Source: Eledone cirrhosa (Eukaryota). Taken from it: a stretch of 64,000 bases of DNA. Position 1 is the first letter of the stretch, and each line of letters opens with the position of its first letter. The translations under genes and the position numbers were made by a program. The stretch covers positions 299,026,001-299,090,000 of the forward strand of contig OZ024743.1 in assembly GCA_964016885.1 (NCBI GenBank), written 5' to 3'. Under the pieces are notes generated by a model. That model saw only the letters and a program-made list of their open reading frames with translations. It was not told the origin of the DNA and made no database searches. This document shows positions 17,448 through 63,443 of this stretch, piece by piece.

Positions 17448-18160
17448 AGAGAGTATTGAAGTTTGCTTGAAGCATTGTGAAATAATAAGGTAAATTTCTT
17501 TAAGTCGTTTGGAAGCCCCGACAATGCAAATGGGTAAATCTCCGGGTAACAAGATCCGGTGGTGGAGAGAGAGATGTAAGTGGGTGTACGTTGAGATGCG
17601 TAGCGTGTATAAGACGTGTAGCGGAATGAAGGAAAGAGCATAAAGGATAAAATAAAAATAACAACACGAGAGAGAGTTACCTTGGGAGAGATTTAATTGT
17701 CCCTATATATTTAGGATTCACATCCATCATCTGGGGGTTTTTTCCGGGGTGGGGGAAAGGTTGTCTGTCGGAAAGGTGCGAAACGCATCCTCCGCTGTTG
17801 TGCGAAACGCATCCTCCGCTGTTCGTTGTTTTGAATATTCAAAACAACGAACAGCGGAGGATGCGTTTCGCACCTTTCCGACAGACAACCTTTCCCCCAC
17901 CTCGGAAAAAACACCCAGTTGATGGATGTGAATCCGAAATATATAGAGACAATTAAATCTCTACCAAGGTAACTCTCTCTCGTGTTGTTATTTTTATTTT
18001 ATCCTTTATTCTCTTTCCTTCATTCCTCTACACGTCTTATATACGCCACGCATCTTAACGTACACCCACTTACATCTCTCTATCCACTACCGGATCTTGT
18101 TACCATGAGATTTACCCATTTGCATTGTCGAGGCTTCCAAACGACTTAAAGTAATTTACC
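17448..18160. mobile_element. Spacerless fold-back palindrome (~0.67 kb), PLE-terminus-like
   Basis: Arms 17489-17836 and 17837-18160 are reverse complements around ttgaatattcaa. About 40 extra nt on the left; (TA)n on both sides. Confidence 0.85.
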
Positions 18161-18244
18161 ATATATATATATATATATATATATAATAATTTTATAATGA
18201 AATGACAGGAGGCTGGATTTGTGTAAATCCTTGAAAGCTTTATT

Positions 18245-18302
18245 ATACTATGATCATTTCAATGACCGGGTTCCGTATGAATCCGGTGATATCATCAGGT
18301 AT
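18245..18302 (-). ncRNA. Minimal type I hammerhead ribozyme
   Basis: Minus strand: auac CUGAUGA [accgg...ccggu stem II] GAAA U GAUC A UA guau. Palindromic stem III, AUA triplet. Confidence 0.75.
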
Positions 18303-21176
18303 TCGAAATATAATACGTGAATGTAATAGATAAAATCCATGGGGCTGAAAATCGAGGACCCGAGGGCGACCGCTATTCTGTTCCTTCAACTTCAGCCGGT
18401 CGCCCTCGAGTGATGTGGCTAAAGTTTACAGTATGCTACTACCGGTCAGATAAACGAAAACAGAAAGGGATGGGAACATAAGTTAGCGTCAATCTCATGC
18501 CACAAGGTAAAAGAAAGAAAGAAAGGAAGGAGAGAGAAGAAGGGGGAAGAAAGAAGAAGAGAAGCCAGGGTTAATGTCAGCTAATAGAAGAAAGGCAACT
18601 ACTACCGGTCAGATATAGGCAAGCAAAAGGGGGAAAGAAGATAAGTCTGCGGGAGGAAGACAGGAAGAGGGGAGAAGAGAAGGAAGAGAAGAGAAGGAAG
18701 AGAAGAGAGAAGTAGAAAAGTAAGGGTTGATGGCTACAAGAAGGAAGATAGAAAGAAAGAGGAAGAAAGGTCGATATTAATGTCAGACCACAGTCAGGCC
18801 AGGAGTGGCGCGAGAAAATTTTCACAGGGACCCGCATCTTAGCAGAGGTGAATATATTGGGAGTCAGTGTGTTACAATGTTTAGACTTATAGGATGAAGT
18901 TAAAAAATTAATAATCAATATTCAATATTAAAGAGGTTAGAGAATTTAAAGTTCAACAGTTTAACATTTTCAGGTTGATAAATCTAATAGTTCCGATTTG
19001 TTCTGTAATTTAAAGGTACTATGTGGCGGTTAAAACACCGGCCGCGCCCCGGGCCCCATGGCGCATTAAGCCACGCCGAGTATTTTCATTTACCAAAAGA
19101 AGGGGAAATTTATTTTTCCAAGCACTCCAGGTAAGCTCGTGCGCCAGGGAGCCGGTCGCGCCGCCATTAAAACCCACCCAACAGTCCGACAGAAAGTTGG
19201 AACTTTAAAATATTGCTTAGAGAAGTAGAAAAGTAAGGGTTGATGGCTACAAGAAGGAAGATAGAAAGAAAGAGGAAGAAAGGTCGATATTAATGTCAGA
19301 CCACTGTCAGGCCAAGAGTGGTGCGAGAAAATTTTCACAGGGACCCGCATCTTAGCAGAGATGAATATATTGGGAGTCAGTGTGTTACAATGTTTAGACT
19401 TATAGGATGAAGTTAAAAAATTAATAATCAATATTCAATATTAAAGAGGTTAGACAATTTAAAGTTCAACAGTTTAACATTTTCAGGTTGATATATCTAA
19501 TAGTTCCGATTCCTTCTGTAATTTAAAGGTACTATGTGGCGGTACACCGGCCGCGCCCCGGGCCCCATGGCGAATTAAGCTACGCCGAGTATTTTCATTT
19601 ACCGAAAGAAGGGGAAATTTATTTTTCCAAGCACTCCAGGTAAGTTCGTGCGCCAGGGGGCTGGTCGCGCCGCCATTAAAACCCACCCAGCAGTCCGACA
19701 GAAAGTTGGAACTTTAAAATATTGCTTAACTTTATCGGATGAAGTTGAAAGAATTCAGAATAACATTATAAAATTAAAGAGTAAGAAGATTGAGAATTGA
19801 ACAAACAGAAAATTGAAGATTAAACATTCAAATAACTTCTATGAGGTTTTGGGTTGCGGGATTTAATTAAAGAGAGTCTTTTATGAAGAAACGTTAATTG
19901 TATTATGTAGATCTGTAATTTATCCTAGTGGGATGTAGAGTACGGGATATAGTCGTGTAATATTTATTTTTGTTCTCAGGAGGAGACATTCTAGTGTCGT
20001 GTGCTAATGGGTACAAGTCCCAATGTGAGGGGTAGAAATACATGGATACATAGAAGTGGAAAACGTGGAAGAGCACATTGGTACAGCAACGGTATAAATA
20101 TATAAACATATCAATATATAGGTATAAATATGTAAATAAACCAACAAGAGTGGTGTTGGAGTAAGATGGAGAAATCAAGACATAGGAGAATTACAATATA
20201 GTTCAGGTTGCCGTATTTATGTTCCCGGGGAGGGGGGGGGGGGGAGACAATCTTGTGTCGTGTGCTAAGGGTACACGCGAGTAAAAGTCCGAATAAGGGA
20301 AGTAAAAAGTACATGGATGTATAGAGGTAGAGTACGTGGAAAGGCATTAATACAGCAAATAAAGATGTGAAGATATAAATAAACAAACAAGACTCATTGT
20401 CTAGTAAATGGAGAGTTCAAGTCACAGGAGAAATACAATATAGTTCAGGTTGCAGTATTTATGTTCCCAGGGGGAGATATTCCAGTGTCGTGTGCTAAGG
20501 GTACACACGAGTAAAAGTCCGAATAAGGGAAGTAGAAAGTACATGGATGTATAGAGGTAGAAATCGTGGAGAAGCATTAATACAGCAAATAAAGATGTAA
20601 AGATATAAATAAACAAACAAGAGTCGTTGTCTATTAAATGGAGAGTTCAAGACACAGGAGAAATACAATATAGTTCAAGTTGCAGTCAGATAATGCATAT
20701 AGATGTGGAAACAGTGTGTGTTCGAGTCTGGGAATTCAGTGTGAGTTATACATGCCCAGAAGTATAGGGTAGCGATTTAGTTAATACAGTGCAGTACAAT
20801 ACATGTTATGGTCTAATCCGTGGAGTTTCGTCGAAGTTCGAATATTCTGAGAGGGGAGTAGCAATGGGCCAGGCGAAAACACCGAGTAGCCAAAGTTCGA
20901 ATTGTGGTTAGATATATTCAGTCCCATGCCGCTGTTCATTATTACATTTTGAAGTGCTCAACATTTCAGGAGCATTATTTATTCGGGTTTGAGGTTCACC
21001 ACTGTATAGAGCTGGTCTATTCCGTATGGTCAATCGTAATGCAATAATATAGAGAGTACTCAACGTAAAGCAGTTCAACCATCTTTGTTTTTGTAGTTGG
21101 TGGTGCTATTACGGAGTTAAATATTATAATGAAATGACAGGAGGCTGGATTTGTGTAAATCCTTGAAAGGTTTATT

Positions 21177-21234
21177 ATACTATGATCATTTCAATGACCG
21201 GGTTCCGTATGAATCCGGTGATATCATCAGGTAT
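21177..21234 (-). ncRNA. Minimal type I hammerhead ribozyme (second copy)
   Basis: Same sequence as the 18245-18302 motif. Confidence 0.75.
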
Positions 21235-21276
21235 TCGAAATATAATACGTGAATACAGTGGTGAACTCAAACCCGA

Positions 21277-21326
<50 letters not shown>

Positions 21327-23050: not shown

Positions 23051-25069
23051 TTATCTATACAGGGGGGGGGGGGGGCTTTGAAAAGGGTATGTCTTGCTAA
23101 TAAGTGTTTTTACGGAGGTACCTGGTATTTCTACTATCTTAATATTGAGTTTATATTTATCTAGGGCCCTTCTAAATTTGTAAGCTAATTCACCTCTAGG
23201 GGTTGTATCGATGAATATTACACTCTGGTATTTATTGCTATCATACCATGAGTTTATTCTATTAGCCTTATTCCTAGTTCTTTCTATTCTATTCCAAAAT
23301 GTGCTCCTATACAAGGGACAGGTCCCATTGGTGTCATTATTTACCATTTTTTTCCCATTTGGTTCTGGCTCCTCTATACACTGTGATTTTATCTCTCTGA
23401 TTGTAACCAGAGAAGTGCATACCGTGGATGAAGTGTTGTATGTGTCTCTATAGTTCTTCGGGGTTGCACATGCGGGACACGTTTCTCATCACCCGTACCA
23501 AATCCGCAATCAGTATGTTGATTTTGGTATGGTCCGAAACAGCTGAGTTTCGCTGGATCAGATATTGGAAGTCATGGGTTTGGCATAATGGGAATGGAGG
23601 ATTTGTTTTTTGTTATTAATGGTATCTAACCAGAGCTCTGTGTCTAGTACAGGTAATCGATGGTTGGGGTGTTTACTTGGGTAGTCTATAGTAACTCTAA
23701 TACTCTGGTGGATGGAGTTAGCTATTTGCTGGATGCTTTCCATTGTGTTTTTCTCTAATTCCTGACTGTTCTCTAGTGGGGGTATTTTAACTACGAATTG
23801 TATATCAGTGGGGGTATTTTAACTACGATTTGTATATCATCAACGTAACGGGAGTACATTATCAGGTTTAAGGGGTCTTCTAATTGTTCTTTAAGTTTAA
23901 GTTTAAGTCTACTGTCCCACCATACCATGAATAAGTTAGCTATGTTGCCTGCAATGCTAACACCAATGGCTGCTCCTTCCGCTTGGGCATATGTTTTTCC
24001 ATTAAATTTGAACATATATTCCTTAAGGGTTAATTTTATGCTGGCCCCCACCGCATGTGCAATCATTTTCTTTAGTTCATCGACGTTTTCGGGTGTCCGT
24101 ATGGCTCTGGTCCACCCGTTCCATCTATCTATGTGGGTTTTCTTGGCCATTGAGGTAATGGTAGGTGGTCTGCCTCTTGCTGGTCTTGTAGGGCACAGGT
24201 TGCTAAGGTCATATGTGTCTAGGTAACTATTACTATAGGTAAGTTTAAGTAGGGGTCCCAGCTCACTGGTATCAATCCCACGGAACTCAACATTGCTCTC
24301 ACTGATAATTTCTACGCATTTCTCCACAGCAAAATCCACATCAATAGATGGATACAGGGACACAACATCCATACTACCTATTATGCAGTTTTTTAGGTCC
24401 CTAGATCGGTTACCCTTGCCGATTCTGCTGAGGAGGTCCTCCGTGCTGTCACATACATCTGGGGACATTTCAATGGTGGGGGGTATGATCAGGGAGAGGA
24501 AGTAGGACAGTCTGTAGTTACTAGCAATGTTAGCTCCACAGACTGGCCGTGTTGGTGGTCCCGTGACAGGGTCACTGCCCGTTTTATGGTCTTTTCGAAG
24601 CCCATACAACGCCGGCACGTCATTCTTCCAAGCCTGTAAGTTGTTTGCAGTCCTTTTGTTGGGCTGCATTATATTCGTCCACATCACCATATGGGCATTG
24701 AGGGCTTTTTCTCTATCCTCATGCTCTTGTGGTGTTACTTCTCTTGCATTAGTGATGTGGGGTTGCATTGCCTGGATGTAGTTTAGCAGGCTTTCAACCG
24801 ACATTTTGCCAGACTTGTCTGTTGGAAAGCATGCTATCTCTCCATTACGCAAGCGCTGCATGAGCTTACGCAAGCCATTTGCAGATTTCTTCTCCCAGTT
24901 GCTGGATCTCCATTCTATGATGCTTCTTGCTATACTGTTCTATAATATTTCTAAGTTCGGATCTAGCTATACTAAATTGTGCTTCTGTTTGTTCATCTAC
25001 CTGCGACGGCAATTGCGTGCGTTTGTTAAATGGTAAAGTCGTGGCGTGGACTCGTCGCAGATCGAACAA
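23051..25069 (-). pseudogene. Penelope-like reverse transcriptase (disrupted)
   Basis: ORF 23791-24873 with TDKSGK, RPVC, SMDVVSLYPSI, QAEGAAIG and RYVDD. Thumb fragments (LPVLD) follow. A ~30-bp duplication at ~23780-23835 breaks the frame. Confidence 0.9.
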
Positions 25070-26714: not shown

Positions 26715-27967
26715 CTGATTGCGGATTTGGTACGGGTGATGAGAAATGTGTCCCGCATGTGCAACCCCGAAGAACTAGAGAGACACATACAACACTTCAT
26801 CCACCGTATGCAGTTCTCTGGCTACAATCAGAGAGATAGAATCAGAGTGTATAGAGGAGCCAGAACTAAATGAGAAAAAATGGTAAATAATGACATAAAT
26901 GGGACCTGCCCCTTGTATAGGAGCAAATTTTGGAATAGAATAGAAAGAACTAGGAACAAGGCCAATAGAATAAACTCATGGTATGATAGCAATAAATACC
27001 AGAGTGTAATGTTCATCAATACAACCCCTAGAGGCGAACTAGCCTACAAATTTAGAAGGGCCCTAAATAAACATAAACTCAATATTAAGATAGTAGAAAG
27101 ACCAGGTACCTCCGTAAAAACACTTATTAGCAAGACATACCCGTTCCAAAGACCCTCATGTATAGATAAGAAATGTATAACCTGTAAAATAAGCCCCCAT
27201 ATTAACTGTAAAACTAGAAATGTAGTGTATAGCATAAGATGTACTGAAAGACAATGTAGAAGCAAAAATATAGTGTACATAGGTGAGACAGCTCGTAGTA
27301 TAGAGGAACGAATAAATGAACACTGGCGAGACCTTCAAGATAATAAAGAATCATCTGTGCTCTACCAACATGCTAAGATAGAACACAGGGGTAGATTAGA
27401 GAACATAGAAATAAAAATAGAATCCACACACAGAAAAGATGCTATGTTTAGGCAAATTACAGAGGCAGTAAGCATAAAAGAATTACAACCAAAATTAAAT
27501 AGAAAATATGAGTGGAACAGCAACATCACAACTTACAATTAAGGACAAAATGAAAACACACACACACATAGAACAAACAACCAACCAATAATAAATAAAT
27601 AAAAAAATAAAAATAAATAAATAAATAAACAAATAGATAAATGAACACAAACACACACAGACACCCGGATGTGGCGCATGCGCAAACTGAGCACACAACA
27701 CACACACAGAAACAAAATGGCGTAGGATAGAAGAAAGGAAAGGCACAGAAACAAAGAAAGGAATCCCCAGTCACTGAAGAGGTCACAGAGTGTGTGACGA
27801 AAGGACTATGACTATATATAAACAACTATCTGGTTGTGGAACCAACCAACCAGAAATTTATAAGTTTGTAGATTTGTAAATTTATAAATTTATAAATATA
27901 TAATAAATTGAAGTGAAAGCAACTGGTGCGTGTGTTTCTTATTGGCAACATGACCCTCCCAAAGTAT

Positions 27968-40459: not shown

Positions 40460-41808
40460 TGGGTTCTGTAACTAGGCACTGGAGAAAGGAGCTGCCCCGA
40501 ATCAGTGGAGGATCAGTAACATCGTCACAGTGCCAAAGAAGGGAGATCTCTCTAACACCAACAACTACAGGGGGATCTCACTGACGTCACTTGTGGCAAA
40601 GAGCCTCAGCAGGATGATTCTTAACAGGATCCAGCCCAAGATGGAGAAGAAGCTCAGGGACAACCAGAAAGGCTTCAGAGAGGGAAGATCAACCACCAGA
40701 CACACCCTGATGCTGAGGAGGATATTAGAGGGAGCTAGAGCAAAGTGCCTTCCTGCAGTCATGGTTCTCATTGATTTTAGGAAGGCCTTTGATTCTGTGG
40801 ACCGTCACTGCCTGATGAAGATGTTACAGGCTTATGGAATCCCCAAGAAGATAGTGGACCTGATATCACTGCTCTACACCAACACCAAAGCTCAAGTCAT
40901 TACACCTGAGTTCTTTGAGATACTGGCTGGAGTGCTCCGGGGAGATACATTGACTCCCTATTTTTTTATCATCGCAGTGGACTATTGTATGCGCCTTGCG
41001 CTGGAGAAACACCAGAACTCTGTCTTTACTGTAACACTCGCTCAGATCAGGAGAGTTAAGGCGAAAAAGATATCGGATGCTGAATATGCTGACGACATAG
41101 TTCTGGTGATAAACACCGTGAAGGAGGGAGAGGAGTTGATGAAGTTGGTGGAGACTGTGTCGATGAGTGTGGGGCTGAGAATGAATGAGATTAAGACGAA
41201 GTATCTGGTAGAGAATATTAAAAAGCCAGAGAAGATTACTAATTTAGGTAGGAAGCCGCTAGAATTGGTTGAGGACTTCCTGTATCTGGGTGAAAAGATT
41301 GGGAATACAGAAGATGATGTGGTCGAGAGGAGAACAAAGCCTGTGCGGCGTGCCACAGTTTGAGATCGGTGTGGAAGTCGGACTTTCGTAAGACCTGAAG
41401 ATCCGTCTCTTCATTGCTGTAGTGGAGTCTGTGGTGTTGTACGGGTCTGAAACTTGGACACTGACCAAGAAACTCACTCAGATGGTTGATGGGTGCTACA
41501 CGAGAATGCTGAGGATGGCTCTGAACATTAATCAGTATATACTGAGGATGGAGAAGTCAGAGCTGCACGGGAGCCTCCCAAACGTCAGCTCGAAAGTAGC
41601 ACAGAGGAGACTGAGGTTAGCTGGACATGCTCACCGACATCCAGAGTTGACACTACACTCAGTTCTCCCGTGGGAGCCCCTGCACGGACACACTGGAAGA
41701 GGAAGACGGAAGTTGACATATGTTGATGCCCTAAGGACAGACACGGGTCTCTTGGAGACGCAGGACATGGCAGCGATGATGAGGGACAGAGACCGCTGGA
41801 GAGAACTC
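40460..41808 (+). pseudogene. RTE/RTEX-like LINE reverse transcriptase (frameshifted)
   Basis: PKKGDLS..NYRGISL, NQKGFREGRST, IDFRKAFDSV, GVLRGDTL, EYADD, FLYLG; then VLYGSETW, RLAGH, GRGR. Confidence 0.92.
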
Positions 41809-41809
41809 G

Positions 41810-42105
41810 TTAAGGGTGAAAGCAGCGATTGTTTGCTTAAACTTTAATCTGCTATTTGAATAAATATTTGCTCTACGGTTCTTATATATTTGATATATAT
41901 TTATCCTTATCGAGCCCTCTTTGGATTTTAGTCTTCAAATTTATTATTATTACTATATTGTTATAATGTCATAATAGTTCCTTTGTTCTTTTTCATTAAT
42001 ATTTCTGCTCTGCTTATACGCATAGAGCTTAACTAGCTACCGTCGCATATTTGGTAGTTCAGACGTGATCATCGCGATTCACATACGACTTACCATACAT
42101 CTTGC
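41810..42105 (+). mobile_element. Family-D short element (also 54135-54247 minus and the 58612-58702 hairpin)
   Basis: gttaagggtgaaagcagcgatt shared with 58651; 41850-41957 is the reverse complement of 54138-54246. Confidence 0.65.
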
Positions 42106-46053: not shown

Positions 46054-46491
46054 GTGTGTGTGAGTATATACATACATGTAGGTACATATGACTGTATGTA
46101 AGTATGCTCATATGTATGTGTGTTTGCATGTCTCTATGTACATTCATATTTCATATACAATATTATTGCTTCCATTAAAATATTAAACATTTTAAATTTC
46201 TCGCTCATCCCCTTCATCATTCGCAATAATTTTCTCTTATGACCATAAATGTTTTTTCATTGCAGATATAATTTTGAATGATTGAAGATTTTTATCTTTC
46301 TTTATAATATAGGATATTATGTTGTACATGAAGAAGGCGTCCAAGGGAAATGTGTTTATGTTACTTCTACTATTACAATAACAACAATGACTACTACTAC
46401 TACTAGTACTACTAGTACTACTACTACTACTACTACTACTACGACCGCCACCACCACCACCACTACCACTACTACGACGACGACCACCACC

Positions 46492-46586
<95 letters not shown>

Positions 46587-47081
46587 CTGTACTACTATCC
46601 TCGTACGAGGCTACGAATTTTAAAGCTAAATATATAACCTATCGACTGAAAACAGCGTGTGAAGTGTCCTTGGCTTTTTATTGTTCATCCTTAGACTTCG
46701 CGGAAATTTGAATTCAGAATGTGGTGGAGGGTAGATTAAATACTGAGAATTATATCCTCTATTCCACAACACGTCACATCTCCTAAGATATACAACGAAA
46801 AGAATCGATGTTGGAAGTAGCAGAGATTGGATTTGTAGAACGAGTGGATACAAGAAAGCAACAGTTGTTGGTTTTTCTCACAGAAAAACCACAGACCCTC
46901 CATCTCAACTCACCTTTTGAAAAGCAGAAGAACTGCGAAACCGGTAAAGGAACCAAATAAATATATATATTTAAAAAAAAAATAAGACTCCAGTTGCATT
47001 TTCGATTTCATCTCTTTTTCTTTATACTTTCACTCGTGTAGGACACCTCGGTTATTTTTCATTTTGTAAAAAAAACCTCAC

Positions 47082-47114
<33 letters not shown>

Positions 47115-47302
47115 GGAAAAAGTATGACTCCGACGGCAGAGCTCAAGCCGTTTCGACGGCAATTTCTCGATCAGAAATAGCCGTCGAAACGGCTGGAGCT
47201 CTGCCGTCGGGGTCATACTTTTTCCTATTTCCCACTCTACTACACTAAGTATTGAGTACTCTTGTGCGTTATGGTCCATCTGGTTCCTTACCACATTTCC
47301 TT

Positions 47303-47418
<116 letters not shown>

Positions 47419-47853
47419 GTGTGTGTGAGTATATACATACATGTAGGTACATATGACTGTATGTAAGTATGCTCATATGTATGTGTGTTTGCATGTCTCT
47501 ATGTACATTCATATTTCATATACAATATTATTGCTTCCATTAAAATATTAAACATTTTAAATTTCTCGCTCATCCCCTTCATCATTCGCAATAATTTTCT
47601 CTTATGACCATAAATGTTTTTTCATTGCAGATATAATTTTGAATGATTGACGATTTTTATCTTTCTTTATAATATAGGATATTATGTTGTACATGAAGAA
47701 GGCGTCCAAGGGAAATATGTTTATGTTACTTCTACTATTACAATAACAACAATGACTACTACTACTACTAGTACTACTAGTACTACTACTACTACTACTA
47801 CTACGACCGCCACCACCACCACCACTACCACTACTACGACGACGACCACCACC

Positions 47854-47899
<46 letters not shown>

Positions 47900-49075
47900 G
47901 TAGTAGTAGTAGTAGTAGTAGTAGTAGCTGTACTACTATCCTCGTACGAGGCTACGAATTTTAAAGCTAAATATATAACCTATCGACTGAAAACAGCGTG
48001 TGAAGTGTCCTTGGCTTTTTATTGTTCATCCTTAGACTTCGCGGAAATTTGAATTCAGAATGTGGTGGAGGGTAGATTAAATACTGAGAATTATATCCTC
48101 TATTCCACAACACGTCACATCTCCTAAGATATACAACGAAAAGAATCGATGTTGGAAGTAGCAGAGATTGGATTTGTAGAACGAGTGGATACAAGAAAGC
48201 AACAGTTGTTGGTTTTTCTCACAGAAAAACCACAGACCCTCCATCTCAACTCACCTTTTGAAAAGCAGAAGAACTGCGAAACCGGTAAAGGAACCAAATA
48301 AATATATATATTTAAAAAAAAAATAAGACTCCAGTTGCATTTTCGATTTCATCTCTTTTTCTTTATACTTTCACTCGTGTAGGACACCTCGGTTATTTTT
48401 CATTTTGTAAAAAAAACCTCACTTTCTAATATATATATATATATATAGGAAAAAGTATGACTCCGACGGCAGAGCTCAAGCCGTTTCGACGGCTATTTCT
48501 CGATCAGAAATAGCCGTCGAAACGGCTGGAGCTCTGCCGTCGGGGTCATACTTTTTCCTATTTCCCACTCTACTACACTAAGTATTGACTACTCTTGTGC
48601 GTTATGGTCCATCTGGTTCCTTACCACATTTCCTTTGATATATATATATATATATATATTTGTGTGTGTGTGAGTATATACATACATGTAGGTACATATG
48701 ACTGTATGTAAGTATGCTCATATGTATGTGTGTTTGCATGTCTCTATGTACATTCATATTTCATATTCAATATTATTGCTTCCATTAAAATATTAAACAT
48801 TTTAAATTTCTCGCTCATCCCCTTCATCATTCGCAATAATTTTCTCTTATGACCAAAAATGTTTTTTCATTGCAGATATAATTTTGAATGATTGAAGATT
48901 TTTATCTTTCTTTATAATATAGGATATTATGTTGTACATGAAGAAGGCGTCCAAGGGAAATGTGTTTATGTTACTTCTACTATTACAATAACAATAATGA
49001 CTACTACTACTACTAGTACTACTAGTACTACTACTACTACTACTACTACGACCACCACCACCACCACCACTACCA

Positions 49076-49166
<91 letters not shown>

Positions 49167-51283
49167 CTGTACTACTATCCTCGTACGAGACTACGAATTT
49201 TAAAGCTAAATATATAACCTATCGACTGAAAACAGCGTGTGAAGTGTCCTTGGCTTTTTATTGTTCATCCTTAGACTTCGCGGAAATTTGAATTCAGAAT
49301 GTGGTGGAGGGTAGATTAAATACTGAGAATTATATCCTCTATTCCACAATACGTCACATCTCCTAAGATATACAACGAAAAGAATCGATGTTGGAAGTAG
49401 CAGAGATTGGATTTGTAGAAAGAGTGGATACAAGAAAGCAACAATTGCTCCTGCTAATTATGTTGTGGCAAACGTAATTTAGGGAGCTCAATTAAAGTGA
49501 CACCTGTGTCGCATAAATATTATTAAGGTTTTGAAATTTTAAGGAGAAATATACAAATGTTTTACTGAAAAACAATCATTGATTAGGCAATTTAAAATAA
49601 TGTCTTAGCAAAGTTTCACAGTAAAGAATTCTGCAGGAAGCTATATTTAATTAGGGTTTAGCACTAATGTACAAAGTAAAAAAGAATAAAAATCCCAAGT
49701 GTAGCAAAATGGTATCATAAGCGTTAATGAGACCTAGGACTACTCGTAATTACTCAGTCATGGTGATTAAAATTTTCAGGCAGTTAACTGAATTATACAA
49801 TTGCCTTAATTCCCATAGTAGTCGATATATAACAAGATTTCAGCATTGTGGCTATGTTATACATGTACAGGATACGTAATGCAATATAATAAAACGCTTC
49901 TTGTCTTTTCTTTTTTTTTGATTCCAGTACAACACAGTGCATCCGAGTCTTTTTGTTCTTCATTTATCTCCTATGACTTTTTAATTTCTTTTGATAGTTT
50001 TAATTTCTTTTGATAGTTTGCAATTAAAGATTAGAGTTGTTCATATGTCCCAGCAATAATTTTAACACGAGTTGAATTACACAATGGTATCTATAAAGGG
50101 TATGAAATATAAAAAAAATAATGTCAATTACATGCTGATGTAGCCGATAATGAAAATAACATTACAGACCATTCACTGCTTGTTTACAAATCAATTTTCT
50201 TTTCAAATCTGATCTACAATGGAATCTGGTTTTAAAAGTTTTATTTCTACACAATTAAATACATAATAAAAATAAACAGTAATTTTAGCTTTGATAAATG
50301 CATTAAAATGTCAAGAATAATTTAAATACTTTTGACATGTTTGACAGCGGTAGATTCTGAAAATGGAATGCTGAATATTGTAATTTTAACTAGTCATAAG
50401 AAGAGGACCTTCTTGAATCATATTCCTAACAAATAAAGTAGGTATTCAATTTTAAGCTACATGCGACCAATGTTTTTAAAATGAAAAATGAAAAGAAAAA
50501 AACACACAAAAAACGTAATTAATGTTATATGCAAATGCAATTAACGATGGATTTTTCAAAGGCATTTGAGATACAATTTTATTATTGGAAATATTCTATG
50601 AAAGTATTCCGGATTTCTTTGAAAATGGATAGTTCTATGAAATTGAGTTTCGCAGCACAGGCCGTAAATTTCTGTAATGAGATAGTATATGACGATTTCA
50701 TTCACCCACTTCTAAACTTTAAATATAAACAATCTTTTATTTGGATTTGGTTTGAGTATGTCGTTTGTTCATTCAGTATGAGACAATGCTTCATGCCGTT
50801 CTAATCATAAAATCTGCCCCAGAAATTAAACGTTTTGTTACATAAAATAAGTGGAGAGCAAACGGTGAAACGGCGTGTTTCTCCCTCATTTTGATTTTCA
50901 TACAATATTTACTTAATGTTATTTTATTTGTCCAAATGTCATACAATATTTCTGCCGGAAACACATCAATTGTTTTACAATGACCGCCAAATGGCTGTTA
51001 TCTATCGCCGAAGGCCGTCTAGGAACGTGCACATATACAAGACTTAAGTTTCCACTAAATAATATTTCGAACCAACATTATGCTATGCATTAATTGAAAA
51101 TCTCCTGGCCAAATGATTGGTTGATATTCCAAGCTGACTCCGCAGAATCGCGTTGGATGTGCAACTTAGTCACAGCATAAAATACAAAAGCAATAAAGAG
51201 TGAAAGCAAAAGCACCAAGATAAATACATAGAAGGAAAGGGTCAAAGTTTATAGTAAACAAAGCCGCAATTATATATATATAT

Positions 51284-55811: not shown

Positions 55812-57258
55812 TTAGGGAGAAGTGTTTAGACGGGGTCCGTATTTGTTAATGAAGTAAGATTCCTTGCTGATGCGCTGGGTGTGGGTGGCATTATCTTTAA
55901 ATTTGTAGAGGGGAAAGATTCTGAAGTTGGGATGATTTTGGGCGGCGCAGGTATCAATGTGTTCACTCAGTGGTATTTTCCTGTATTCCCGTATTTTAAT
56001 TTGGGATCTATGGACAGTCATGCGTTGGCGGAGGCTGTTTTTGGTCTGGCCTATGTATTGTTCTCGACAACCTGAACAAGTTAATACATATATTAAATTT
56101 TCCGATGCACATGTGAAATTGTGTTTTACTATAAAACGTTGTCCATCTTTGAAATAGAATTCCGAACCCTCTATTAGGTTGATGCAAATGCCACAGTTGG
56201 GTCTATCGCATTTTTTTTACTGTGGGTTTCGTTGTTGTGGTTGGCAGTACTTTGGCATGTGTTAAGATGTTTTTCATTGACTTGGATTGTCTTTTGCTCT
56301 TTATGATATCGTGTGTTCGTAGAATTTGGTTCATTCTATGGTCCTTTTTCAATACAGGGATGTTCTGGAGGATGGTGTCAAAAGCCTCGTTGTTGAGGGG
56401 GTTGTGTGTGGAGATGTATGGAAGAGCTTTTAGTTTTGGTTGATTTACTTTAGGGTGTCTAAGGTCCTGGGTACTGAGTTTTAGGGCACGTTGGATTCCA
56501 TTGTCAATTAGTGATGCAGGGTAGTCCCTGCCTATGAGTGTGTCCTTTAGTTCTTGTAGCCGTAAGTAGCAGATGTTTTTATTGGAGACTATAGTACAGA
56601 TTCTCTTGGCTAAGTTGTAGGGAATATTAATTTTAACGTGTCTAGGGTGGCAAGAGTTGAAGGGGAGGTATTGCTTGGAGTCTGTGGGCTTGTAGTATAT
56701 GTCTGTTTCTATGTTTTTGTTATGGATCTTAATGAGGATGTCGAGGAAGGGGAGTTGTTGATGGCTGTATTCCATCGTGAAGTTAATATTTGTGTTGAGC
56801 CCATTTATAAGGGTGTGAAATTCTTTAAGTTTTTCGATGTTTTCGTGCCAAAGGATGAAGCAGTCATCAAGATATCGCTTCCAGTTCCTTTCAATGTGTA
56901 AGTGGAGGGTGTTTCCAAATTTGTTTAGGACTTTAGTGTAGAGGGTGATTTCCAGGTATCCCATGACTAGGTTGGCATACGTAGGGGCTGTTTTCGTTCC
57001 CATAGCGGTCCCAGATTTCTGCCTGTAGGGTTTGTTATTGAAAACGAAGTAATTGTTCTCCAAGATAAATTTGAGTCCCTCTATCACGAATTCTTTTTTG
57101 ATGCGTTGTGGGAGTTCATTGTGGAAGTTATCCAGCCAGAATTGGATAGCTTCTATTCCTAGGTTGTGGGGGATGTTGGAGTATAGGTTGACTACATCGA
57201 ACGTCACTAGTAGGGTTTGTTCAGAAAGTGGCATATTAGGGAGGTGATTGAGCATATC
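55812..57258 (-). pseudogene. Penelope-like RT plus Cys motif plus GIY-YIG (5'-truncated, one frameshift in an A-run at ~56210)
   Basis: TFDVVNLYSNI, QKSGTAMGT, WKRYLDD, LPFLD, SCHP; then CGIC, NLIYVLTC..C..QYIGQT..RMTVH..E..LN. Confidence 0.93.
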
Positions 57259-57951
57259 TAAAATACGGGAATACAGGAAAATACCACTGAGTGAACACAT
57301 TGATACCTGCGCCGCCCAAAATCATCCCAACTTCAGAATCTTTCCCCTCTACAAATTTAAAGATAATGCCACCCACACCCAGCGCATCAGCAAGGAATCT
57401 TACTTCATTAACAAATACGGACCCCGTCTAAACACTTCTCCCTAAGACGAACCCACAACATACACACGTCAACATACATACCTACATCAGCACACATCTC
57501 TACCCACATATAAACACAATGACACACGTAAACACACATGCTCTATGGTGCAATACAAAAAAATATATGTGCATATATATGTATGTATATATGTATATAT
57601 ATATATATATATATGTAGTGAAAATATATATATGTGTGTGTGTGTGTGTATATATATATAGTGAATATCATTTCACACCTTTTATTGTTAAGATTGTTGA
57701 TGTTCTATTAAGAGAACCGATTTTACTGAAAAAATCGAATAATGTACACCATTTTACCAGGGGGGAAAAAAATACTGGTCCACCCACACACGCACACACA
57801 CACACACACATATATACACAAACACATACACACGCGTACATCAACATACAAAGAGACTTATACACACACACACACACACACGCACTTCTCCGTATAAGAC
57901 AAAAGCTGAAAAATATCTTTTGACCTTCGAATGACTCTGCTGTGTGTATGT

Positions 57952-58702: not shown

Positions 58703-58771
<69 letters not shown>

Positions 58772-58773
<2 letters not shown>

Positions 58774-60650
58774 CCAGAATTTAGGAAGGATGCGTAAAAA
58801 TATCAGAAAGCTTTTTAAGGAACTAGGATTAAATATTACATTTGAATATAACCTCAAAGAGGTTAATTTCCTTGATGTTACTTTGAATCTCAATACAGAA
58901 ACGATTAAACCTTTCCATAAACTAAATGAGAACCTTAAATATGTAAATAACCGTTCTAACCATCCACCCTCTATAATTAAATCCATCCCTAGAAATATTT
59001 CCCTTAGAATCTCCCGCCTGTCGTCCAATCAGCAAACCTTCAAAGAACATGCCGAATATTATGATGATGCACTTAGGAAAGCCGGACACCTAGATAATAT
59101 AGAGTATATAGTCGACGATCACCAAAACACCCAAAATAAATCTCAGAGAGGTAGAAATAGCATAGAATCACCATCATACATACACTACCGCAATAGACAC
59201 ACTAATAGTCGCACACCACAAAACAGAAGGCGATGTAAACAGTATATATGGTACAACCCGGTCTATAACAACTTTATTAAAACCAATCTACCCTCACAAT
59301 TATTTCGATTAGTTAAAAAACACTTTCCAACATCACATAAATATAATTAAATCTTAAACCCTAACACTATTCGACTTTCATATTCAACCACCCCTAATAT
59401 TGAACAACATATAAAAAGCTTAACGCAAAACGGTTGTAGAAACGCCTTCCAACACATAACAATACACGTAAAACATCAGCTATAACATCACAAAACAACA
59501 AACAACATCCCGTCCTACCTAAGCAACCTCATCAACCCACCCATGCCAATACAACAACGCAAAATTATAACTGTAACTGTGTCCAACCAGGAATGTGTCC
59601 GTTGAACAATTAGTGTCTTGAACGCAACATCATATACAAATGTACTATCGAATCGGATAGACAGAAGTGGTACTATGTGGGGTCTACAGCCACCTCCTTC
59701 AAATCTCCCCTTTATAGACATCGTTACTCGATAAAACATGAAAACCAGCGTTATGTAACAACACTCGCAGACAAGGCTTGGCAGCTGCGCGAAAATAACC
59801 AACAATTTAACCTAAAATGGGATATAATAGTATCTGCCCCTGCATATCCCCACGGACAGGAATTTTGTAAATTATGTAATATGGAATTATTTTGTATTAT
59901 GAAATCCAAAAATATTTTATTAAATAACAGAATAGAGCGATCGTTATACTGTAACCATCGCTTGAAATCTACATGTTCATATTACAAACACTACCAGGAT
60001 TGAACGCCTGTCTCCATCTCCGTTTGATTGTCAAAATACATATTAACATTCTCTATTAGTCTTAATTCTATCAACTCTTCTATTCTTTACCATTTAATAT
60101 AAACTGCTATAGATAAAATGAGATTTCTTAATTCAATTCCCTAATGCATATACCAGCAGGCTACCAGCATTGTTGTTATTTAGTAGCAGTGAAAAATCTC
60201 CCTCTTCCTTAATTGACACTTTATAATTAATACTACTACACCAAACGACCAGCCCTGTCCATTGTTCAATTGGTCAAGTATAGATTAAAATAGGCACTCC
60301 CAAAAATTCTTATTTAGATAAAATAAACCATATACTCATTGTATTCTGATTAGAAACCCTTTATATACTTGTTTACCAGTAAATAGAATTGCCATCTGTC
60401 ATATACTATCTCCCCTCTTCTTCCTTTATTCCAACTAATATAAATACTTCAACTTTTCTGATTTTTTCCAATTTATCCAATATCTCTGAAGAAGTGACAA
60501 CTGATTACACATTTGCTATCGAATACTTGCTAACATTATATGATTACGCAAGCAGCGATACATAGGTATTCCGTCTGTTACAGAAACATATGTCAATATC
60601 TAATAAATTCCTTTTTAAAAAAAACACTTTCATTTTATATTCATCTTTTC
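58772..60650 (+). mobile_element. 5'-truncated PLE family C (thumb plus GIY-YIG, disrupted)
   Basis: VNFLDVTLNL, SNHPPSIIKSIP, IWYNP, CNC..CPL..CL..NIIYKC..YYVGST, CKLC..E..LLN; (TA)n flanks. Confidence 0.9.
60480..60599 (+). ncRNA. HHR with extended stem II at the PLE-C 3' end
   Basis: auaucu CUGAAGA a[gugaca ...~80 nt... uguuac]a GAAA C AUAU G UC aauau. Confidence 0.6.
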
Positions 60651-61977: not shown

Positions 61978-63088
61978 TTGTATCTATACATGCACACAAT
62001 TACATATTATATCTATATATATATATATATCAAGTCTATTCAAGTACGACGGGCGATTCGCGATTGATCAGCTCAATGTTCGATCTCTATTGGATGGGTC
62101 TGACTCTAGAATCAAAAGCTCATCAGACTCACACACACACACACATACACACAAACACACACACACACACACACAGATACACACACGCACACACATAGAC
62201 ACTCACACATACATATATATATAGATTTATAAATATACATATAATATAATTTATCATTTGAACGTATGTTTTTGTCTGCACATAAGTGTGTATATATCTG
62301 GGTATCGTGATACAATTTTAATATACGCAACTAGATTGAGACATAATGCATGCATACACACATCCAACAATAGACGCACAACACATATGTATGTATGTTC
62401 TTCTGGTTTTATAATTTCACAACATTTTTCCCAATAGAGAGAGAGTCGGTTTCTAACATAGACACAAGACTCTCTCATTGGAATTTACACATGTATGCAT
62501 GTATGTATATATGTACGTCTGTGCGAATATAATCTAAATGGTTCTATGTATATATACATTATGCAATACACATACACACACATATATGTATATATATATA
62601 TATATATACACACATACACTCTTATATATATATATTTATACATGCGTTACTTATATTTTAACTTTTTCTGCCCTAGGCGAAAAACCGCATTTTAAAGCCA
62701 TATTTAGGCCCTTTTTGAGGCGTAATTTAAAGATAATCCAGTCGACTTCCTCGAAATTTGCAGTACATATTATTTAGTCCCCTCGCATTGCTGTGGACAA
62801 AGAAAAATTTCCGATTCCATTAATGGTCTCTAGGAAATTTACGAATTCGCATTGGGCATTTCATGCCATTTTCATTTTCGATATAAACGTTACTTAAACA
62901 TCGTAAGTAGCGTATAATATTTCGTTAAAAATTTGATTTATTTAACAGAGGACACAACATTGGAATCATATATGATTCCAGTTCCTCAATGAGATAACAA
63001 CACAACAAGGAGGTGAAAAAAAAGATGTATTGACAGAGAAAAACACATTTCAACAACATGTGTACCTGCCTCTCCCACACCAATTCGG

Positions 63089-63143
63089 ACTGCCTGAAGA
63101 GGTTACAGCCAATGATGGCTGTCACCGAAATGTATATAGCAGT
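63089..63143 (+). ncRNA. Minimal type I hammerhead ribozyme
   Basis: acugc CUGAAGA GGU u ACAGCCA auga UGGCUGU c ACC GAAA U GUAU A UA gcagu. Confidence 0.8.
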
Positions 63144-63409
63144 ATATCTATAATTTATAATAAACGAAGCCAAATTTTACATATTTGACTTAATTAATTT
63201 ACATTACTCCGGAGTAAACAAACCAACCTGTGTACTTCGTCGAGTGCTCCAATCTGTATACTGAGGTGTCGGAAAACAAACCAACATATACTCAATATAT
63301 ATATATATATACACATACACGCAACCTGGCGGACTGATATGTTTATAGGGTTTGCAGGAATAAAATAATTAAAGGAATGCATCCTGCCCAGCCTCCTGTC
63401 ATTTTACTT

Positions 63410-63443
<34 letters not shown>

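Follow-up and report, generated by a model that had tools for sequence, protein, structure and literature searches.

An abundant 2.9-kb non-coding hammerhead element in Eledone cirrhosa, likely mobilised in trans by a Penelope-like enzyme and likely copied from circular RNA

Animal retrozymes lacking long terminal repeats (non-LTR retrozymes) have units of ~170–400 nt (PMC7229834), and a tandem-repeat screen with the period capped at 1,000 bp lists units of 51–972 bp (preprint 10.64898/2026.07.22.740005). Among animal hammerhead ribozymes, HHR_Amex2 has a helix II based on U.U and cleaves better as a dimer (PMC7229834), and the LTR retrozymes of plants have a circular RNA intermediate (PMC7761336). 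Penelope-like elements (PLEs) leave partial tandems and inverted 5'-truncated copies (PMC8557442, PMC3846280); circular templates for their more-than-unit copies were proposed earlier (PMC4209133), and a PLE protein has been found to nick and extend both strands of AT-rich DNA and to start at two sites inside the RNA, by which the tail seen in the genome is defined (PMC11167929). Non-autonomous PLEs (MRC1) and cargo flanked by pseudo-LTRs (pLTRs) are already known, the latter from Adineta vaga, in which the gene for an NRPS (non-ribosomal peptide synthetase) was moved in trans (PMC3846280). We describe a hammerhead-bearing insertion in a 64,000-nt stretch of the Eledone cirrhosa genome (assembly GCA_964016885.1, contig OZ024743.1, positions 299,026,001 to 299,090,000), called the window below; a literature search, with Repbase and Dfam outside its scope, returned nothing on multi-kilobase non-coding hammerhead units.

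The insertion is a copy of an abundant non-coding hammerhead element, which is likely to be mobilised in trans by a PLE enzyme and likely to be copied from a circular monomer RNA; we put the probability of this reading at roughly 0.6. Positions within the unit are numbered from the predicted cut site (m1 = 21180, m2932 = 18249), and the features are collected in Table 1. The direct repeats at the two ends are spaced 2,932 nt apart and match at 133 of 135 positions, the mismatches lying at 18191/21123 and 18238/21170. An earlier note on this DNA had reported two identical repeats of ~130 bp, each with a hammerhead and with cut sites ~2932 nt apart; the spacing, the approximate length and the two hammerhead copies are all borne out, “identical” being slightly too strong. 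The internal tandem repeats and the 12-bp GC hairpin of that note are also present. The hairpin stem (18361–18372 with 18397–18408) is perfect, with folding z-scores of −3.9 on the plus and −5.4 on the minus strand and none of 200 shuffles equally stable; in the sister families introduced below the hairpin is retained with an altered sequence. Overlooked in the note was that 21253–21283 is an inverted copy of 20976–21007, the second arm of the insertion; the window copy has an m60 arm of 3,067 nt and an m205 arm of 31 nt. Contigs of two public DNA runs cover the interior throughout (30/30 and 29/30 bins); these runs come from the same study as the assembly, so they are not independent of it. 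The joint of an empty site was not seen in the DNA contigs of the public runs, where absence proves nothing.

A 27-nt motif at the end of the family has 2,040 exact matches in the genome, vs none for a control; with probes from the interior, the 3.0 Gb yielded 2,152 and 1,512 candidates. We mapped 33 family loci of 10 kb, picked from the interior-probe lists. All 33 are permuted head-to-tail runs of the unit, and 11 of them align over >2.7 kb at 91.5–95.4% identity. The upstream boundary varies freely, clustering at and after the GC hairpin: among truncations above m2300, 15/29 and 12/25 fall in m2770–2860. Because the fetched loci are permuted head-to-tail runs with a variable upstream boundary, the window copy is a 1.05-mer, and its repeats are the terminal redundancy of that permuted copy, not LTR-like independent ends. 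The earlier note had asked whether the interior accompanies the repeat at other (TA)n-flanked loci, or is single-copy and unlinked to it. Across the genome the interior is present in multiple copies and in linkage with the repeat, the two occurring together at many loci on several chromosomes.

The 2,932-nt unit (family A) is a young family inside an older lineage. Sister B has a unit of 1,842–1,867 nt, with hammerhead and tail 82–86% identical, and sister C a ~2.2-kb unit, about 70–80% identical; the oldest sister, F (loci L327 and L329–L358), is ~82% identical between copies, has 2,450 candidates and the same two ends, and intermediates exist. Both 3' ends are common to all sisters, and a 16-nt end motif of the lineage has 8,224 exact matches vs one for a control. 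No sister unit contains an ATG frame of more than 99 codons (F assessed in part), and conserved internal blocks are common to three sister families. Judged by these comparisons, the interior is an inherited body, not one-off cargo. The locus had been described in the earlier note as an unusually large “retrozyme-like or cargo-carrying” non-autonomous PLE; its size, likeness to retrozymes and non-autonomy fit, and the cargo does not. A similar terminus that the note placed against (TA)n at ~63390 exists, at 63389, as part of a plus-strand fragment of the older sister C.

Two 3' ends recur in the family, and both lie on (TA)n: end A at ~m60 and end B at ~m205, the latter being position 20976 in the window. 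In a position-ordered sample of 73 motif-bearing arms, 35 stop at end A, 27 at end B and 11 otherwise. Two inverted arms with both ends visible were found at 27 of the 33 family loci, and end A is paired with end B in 26 of these, the remaining one having two short ends (binomial p 2e-7); this count was read from locus maps, and a stricter regular expression resolved 16 loci, 15 of them A+B. The window copy is built in the same way, with end A at 18188 and end B on the 31-nt inverted arm. The family thus shows the pseudo-LTR partial tandem, variable 5' truncation, inverted arm, two-end tail and AT-rich or microsatellite target of PLE-type insertions; any target duplication is hidden by the (TA)n flanks. 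From this insertion anatomy alone we strongly infer mobilisation by a PLE enzyme, since the two ends, the (TA)n targets and the inverted truncated arms match what has been published for PLEs.

Each minus-strand motif reads AUAC-CUGAUGA-(31-nt helix II region)-GAAA-UGAUCA-UA/GUAU, with the slash at the predicted cut. When the window was scanned on either strand for CUGANGA...GAAA followed by a hexamer palindrome and U, no sites other than these two came up. The core, helices I–III and the palindromic UGAUCA stem III given in the earlier note are there, but the base of helix II is a U.U mismatch, so the hammerhead is not canonical. Rfam searches of the window, the element and four sister loci, at gathering and E-value thresholds, detected no ribozyme or other family, the output being otherwise microsatellite-driven miRNA noise, and a metagenome scan for the hammerhead motif gave 0 matches. 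All four core blocks are intact in 72 of 83 junctions. Helix III varies among sisters (UGAUCA, UGUGCA, UAUAUA, UGUACA) and is fully self-complementary in 208/227 copies, as only 36 of the 256 possible U-NNNN-A hexamers are; the second pair of helix II is A-U, G-C or G.U, and the palindrome and core are maintained across ~20–30% divergence. Among 12 aligned copies, the hammerhead cells are paired in 74% of cases vs 17–35% when slid, and two copies of the 8-nt palindrome AUGAUCAU pair with each other along their whole length (−7.2 kcal/mol). Because the sequence of helix III changes yet stays self-complementary, these comparisons argue for a ribozyme kept under selection, as a dimeric hammerhead like HHR_Amex2.

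The cut site is spanned by 83 of 89 junction matches, and none begins at it. All 77 helix-III matches run straight into GUA with no bases added or lost; a reverse count gave three apparent exceptions, which are an unrelated repeat. Reverse transcription from m60 or m205 arrives at the cut site after 205 nt at most, which means that these copies cannot come from a cut linear monomer by itself. Same-arm repeat pairs (n = 22) diverge by 0–5.2%, with a mean of 1.7% vs 3.4% to other loci, and at each of two loci (L186 and L190) the paired repeats do not differ at all (0/546). None of the 154 differences between upstream and downstream repeats recurs in more than two loci, while both repeat copies carry the variant in 12 cases in which it is confined to a single locus. 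Opposite arms are alike in this respect (19 pairs, 13 locus-private shared variants), and there are at least five haplotypes, 3–4% apart, each concordant between same-arm repeats and the opposite arm. The clean crossing of the cut site, together with haplotypes common to both repeats and the lack of recurrent differences between them, makes it likely that a single unit was copied for more than one full turn, from a circle or by an exact template jump.

The same PLE passenger could have been copied from an uncut linear read-through of a tandem donor, the hammerhead acting elsewhere or not at all. Unbroken junctions are what this predicts, no arm exceeds two junctions, and young donors would carry identical repeats; moreover, uncut RNA is what the anole PLE mainly uses in vitro, and RNA-seq gave no reads ending at its cut site (PMC11167929). 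On the other hand, a linear donor has to accommodate the five or more concordant haplotypes and the locus-private shared variants with no recurrent difference, it would require gene conversion at every subfamily birth, and it leaves the palindrome and core maintained through the divergence of the lineage. We consider it unlikely. Alternatively, the hammerheads may release a linear monomer, and on reaching its 5' end the PLE enzyme may make an exact jump to the 3' end, either of that molecule or of a sister one, so that more-than-unit cDNA would arise with no covalent circle. This accounts for the haplotype concordance equally well and explains the rarity of more than two junctions. Template jumps by retrotransposon reverse transcriptases (RTs) are usually imprecise; the 77 junctions are clean and no truncation falls at m1, and we think a jump of this kind distinctly improbable.

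Several observations weigh against a hammerhead-processed circle copied by a PLE enzyme. The single motif misfolds by 11 kcal/mol (active fold −4.0 vs best fold −15.2 kcal/mol), helix III is the non-palindromic UGUUCA in one subfamily (9/227), and the covariation of the hammerhead does not beat shuffles, of which 36–49/500 are equally high. The circular monomer, with 51% of its bases paired and −0.195 kcal/mol per nt (no shuffle control), appears unlike compact retrozyme circles. Hammerhead cleavage was dispensable, and uncut RNA was used, for the anole PLE in vitro (PMC11167929). An insertion's own repeat is the closest sequence in only 8 of the 22 pairs, which is expected of young families and not decisive; no arm with three junctions occurs among the 33 loci, a set biased toward long copies by the way it was picked. 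Finally, an autonomous PLE whose ends are homologous did not turn up among 50 GIY-YIG loci, a partial sample made up of the top 30 and 20 further long-frame loci, and the ends of the lineage are not linked to an open reading frame (ORF) in 70 position-ordered motif-bearing loci.

If the element is indeed a PLE passenger copied from a circle, its cycle might proceed as follows. A transcript would run through both hammerheads, and two motifs would pair via the palindromic helix III and cut, probably with the help of protein; we infer, as the earlier note did, the release of a 2.9-kb linear or circular RNA. Ligation of the monomer would give the circle. A PLE protein would then bind the conserved 205-nt region behind the cut site and nick both (TA)n strands, and reverse transcription would start internally, at ~m60 at one nick and ~m205 at the other. 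The resulting cDNAs would cross the ligation site, sometimes twice, stop variably and join head to head. A bolder picture is possible, although we would not bet on it: these may be long-lived multi-kilobase non-coding circular RNA parasites, in which a circle of 2.9 kb, processed by the hammerheads and equal in length to the coding element that it exploits, hijacks a PLE enzyme without having its end sequence, is reverse transcribed from two sites simultaneously into both (TA)n strands, and needs a new conserved internal RNA domain, the three-way junction with its long stem, to reach or recruit the enzyme, as Alu does its domain derived from the signal recognition particle (SRP).

The unit has little room for protein. 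Its longest ATG frame is 86 codons; Pfam gave no family above cut-off in eight interior stop-free frames (65–114 aa), and tblastn against six PLE proteins of the window gave no match (best E 2.4). The interior thus lacks a recognisable RT, as the earlier note had it, and the element is without the RT/GIY-YIG ORF of an autonomous endonuclease-bearing (EN+) PLE. An Arterivirus GL match in Pfam (E 0.0018, below cut-off, in a low-complexity frame) was set aside as noise, and a 21-codon frame in the tail was dropped, its length not being conserved across sisters. Turning to a possible partner, the genome holds 10,597 GIY-YIG candidates for PLE endonucleases, 150 of which were scored. Young long-frame PLE families ending on (TA)n, at two sites, were found, so suitable enzymes exist in this genome. 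None of the four PLE ORFs in the window shares ends with the element, and following the older sisters C and F upstream led to no autonomous partner; two loci considered as partner links (L244 and L311) are nested neighbours with (TA)n between. Either the partner is rare, or it recognises structure more than sequence.

It is very improbable that the unit is a decayed or gutted remnant of one autonomous PLE: the ends and hammerhead are PLE-like, but similarity to PLE proteins is nil, copies are 91–95% identical over their full length and some repeats are 0% diverged, so that an ORF could not have decayed past recognition, and the three sisters (1.85, ~2.2 and 2.9 kb) are all non-coding with internal blocks in common. 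Two independent mini-insertions around unrelated host DNA, for which it may be said that short stumps are the commonest form of the family, are refuted by the recurrence of the interior with the repeat, and together with an assembly artefact, against which stand the contigs covering the interior, they can be dismissed.

Although their interiors are otherwise divergent, A, B and C all keep a motif, GAGU(G/A)CU(U/C)GGAAA...UUUCC...ACUC, with two copies in A and B and at least one in C. The pattern has 1,598 exact matches in the genome, and 29 of 30 sampled motifs lie ≤1.5 kb from a hammerhead or tail of the lineage; it is absent from the 50 autonomous-PLE loci and has no match in Rfam. The predicted fold, a three-way junction with a long stem, is on the hammerhead strand, as are G.U variants. 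Covariation is unsupported on sequence alignments, in which 85% is paired and 491 and 499 of 500 shuffles are as high; it is not demonstrated because the core is mostly invariant. A flank-swap test was mixed (cognate best in 2/6 rows, with one row an inversion-junction artefact), and folding z-scores range from −5.8 to +0.3 in 11 copies. We regard the motif as a candidate new cis-acting RNA element. In sisters A, B and C, a self-complementary octamer, GAGU(A/G)CU(C/U), opens the internal motif and also stands in the conserved tail (minus strand, 21054–21061, 19629–19636 and 19120–19127; the tail holds GAGUACUC at 21061–21054), and could serve long-range or intermolecular pairing. Near the internal motif, a YY1-like GCCGCCAT as a promoter signal and a plus-strand CAG/GTAAGT as a splice signal were both dropped, sisters B and C being without them.

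Table 1. Features of the insertion and of a related fragment in the window (positions are those of the window).
Feature	Position	Strand	Remarks
Entire insertion: 1.05-mer of the non-coding element (unit 2,932 nt) with 31-nt inverted second arm	18188..21283	-	Flanked by two (TA)n tracts
Predicted monomer, cut site to cut site	18249..21180	-	2,932 nt, U/C-rich
Terminal redundancy, downstream copy	18188..18322	-	Stops at fixed 3' end A (~60 nt past cut) on (TA)n
Terminal redundancy, upstream copy	21120..21254	-	5'-truncated at m2859
Type I hammerhead, downstream	18245..18302	-	CUGAUGA 18298-18292, GAAA 18260-18257, UGAUCA 18256-18251, predicted cut 18249/18248
Type I hammerhead, upstream	21177..21234	-	Predicted cut 21181/21180
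Conserved motif just before end A	18200..18215	-	Common to all sister families; second copy 21132-21147
“Tail” of 145 nt, from end A to end B	20976..21119	-	70-85% conserved in sister families
Inverted 31-nt second arm (m174-205)	21253..21283	+	Terminates at end B on (TA)n
GC hairpin, 12 bp, ~110-160 nt upstream of cut site	18361..18408	-	Folding and shuffles
513-nt internal tandem duplication (96%)	18706..19728	.	Holds internal motif copy 2
Internal motif copy 1, predicted three-way junction on long stem	19570..19664	-	Stem reaches about 19521-19695
Internal motif copy 2, within 513-nt duplication	19061..19155	-	Motif kept in A, B and C
~230-nt internal tandem unit, about three copies	19965..20686	.	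Within the predicted monomer
(TA)n target tract, end A	18161..18185	.	Tail of older palindromic element 17485-18164
(TA)n target tract, end B	21277..21307	.	Inverted second arm terminates on it
Short decayed sister C fragment ending at end A on (TA)n	63322..63412	+	Separate insertion

We also note some neighbouring elements: (i) At 17485–18164 lies an inverted repeat of 315 nt (94%) that has (TA)n ends and hammerhead-like cores in degenerate form (...GGAUGUGAAUCC GAAA UAUAUA), is very deep in the public DNA run X1 and resembles the palindromic stump of a different PLE family; the 2.9-kb element is inserted in its (TA)n tail. (ii) A separate hammerhead family is represented at 63060–63310 (plus strand), with a CUGAAGA core and the helix III palindrome AUAUAUAU in most copies; it has 2,960 candidates, ends on (TA)n and is unrelated to the 2.9-kb lineage. 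(iii) Fragments of at least three autonomous PLE families, with RT and GIY-YIG-like frames and ends unlike those of the element, occupy 23791–24939 (minus), 26874–27542 (plus), 55812–57321 (minus) and 58703–60003 (plus). (iv) Elsewhere in the genome, loci L239, L240, L244, L246, L247, L250 and L255 belong to a young PLE family, exemplified by a 938-aa frame on the minus strand of L239, which has two 3' ends on (TA)n, separated by about 60 nt. Its hammerhead core looks degenerate, with helices present and CUGANGA missing, and this is possibly a ribozyme-dead but recently active canonical PLE. (v) LINE-type RT fragments (PF00078, E 2e-29) are found at 40476–41847 (plus), and three similar ~1.3-kb units with (ACT)n/(TAG)n tracts at 46237–49218 form a local tandem duplication.

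The size range of retrozymes is extended about three-fold by this family, into a class invisible to the tandem screen capped at 1,000 bp. Both the role of the hammerhead in PLEs and a circular origin of their more-than-unit copies are debated, having been proposed in PMC4209133 and found unsupported in vitro in PMC11167929. The family offers a clean genomic test bed for them: its ribozyme is free of ORF overlap, it has thousands of copies at about 0–20% divergence, the helix III palindrome co-varies, and the repeats of each insertion are reset to one haplotype. The near-strict pairing of two start sites on opposite arms, counted here for the first time, constrains models of integration (two cDNAs, two nicks).

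Plant LTR retrozymes likewise have a non-coding interior between direct repeats that bear two hammerheads; theirs are of type III, with true LTRs, a primer-binding site and polypurine tract (PBS/PPT) and a spacing of 600–1,000 bp (PMC7761336), and a 4-bp target duplication also belongs to the type, whereas here the hammerheads are of type I, the pseudo-LTRs are permuted, the targets are (TA)n and the repeat boundaries vary between copies. The Adineta vaga cargo was a single capture of a host gene, in contrast to the heritable non-coding body amplified here through successive subfamilies. MRC1 of Chlamydomonas, among the Chlamys elements, is also a non-coding PLE passenger with pLTRs and head-to-tail insertions; however, elements of the MRC1 type generally resemble an autonomous family at the 3' end, while no matching partner was found here among the loci sampled, and most Chlamys elements are without the canonical hammerhead, which is conserved here (all PMC8557442). 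With EN+ PLEs such as Poseidon PAc of the anole, the element shares partial tandems as pseudo-LTRs and an inverted 5'-truncated copy (PMC11167929; PMC8557442, PMC4209133), an optional tail from two internal starts that lie past the hammerhead on its downstream side, targets that are AT-rich or (TA)n, and a hammerhead with a long helix II. Unlike them, it has no RT or GIY-YIG ORF, its pairing of a short and a long end in each insertion is nearly strict (26/27), and its tail is ~145 nt vs 30–40 nt in described PLEs. With animal non-LTR retrozymes it has in common a non-coding head-to-tail unit, a type I hammerhead with a weak palindromic helix III, at least two hammerheads per insertion (in the window and the 22 same-arm pairs) and a proposed dependence on PLEs, and with HHR_Amex2 the U.U at helix II. 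It departs from them in its unit of 2,932 nt (1.85 and ~2.2 kb in the sisters), well outside their sizes, in its dispersed, 5'-truncated, two-armed insertions of one or two units instead of long arrays, and in its apparently loosely paired U/C-rich RNA, with a conserved internal motif and a putative circle. In the way it works the element is like an animal non-LTR retrozyme, and in the way it inserts, like a PLE.

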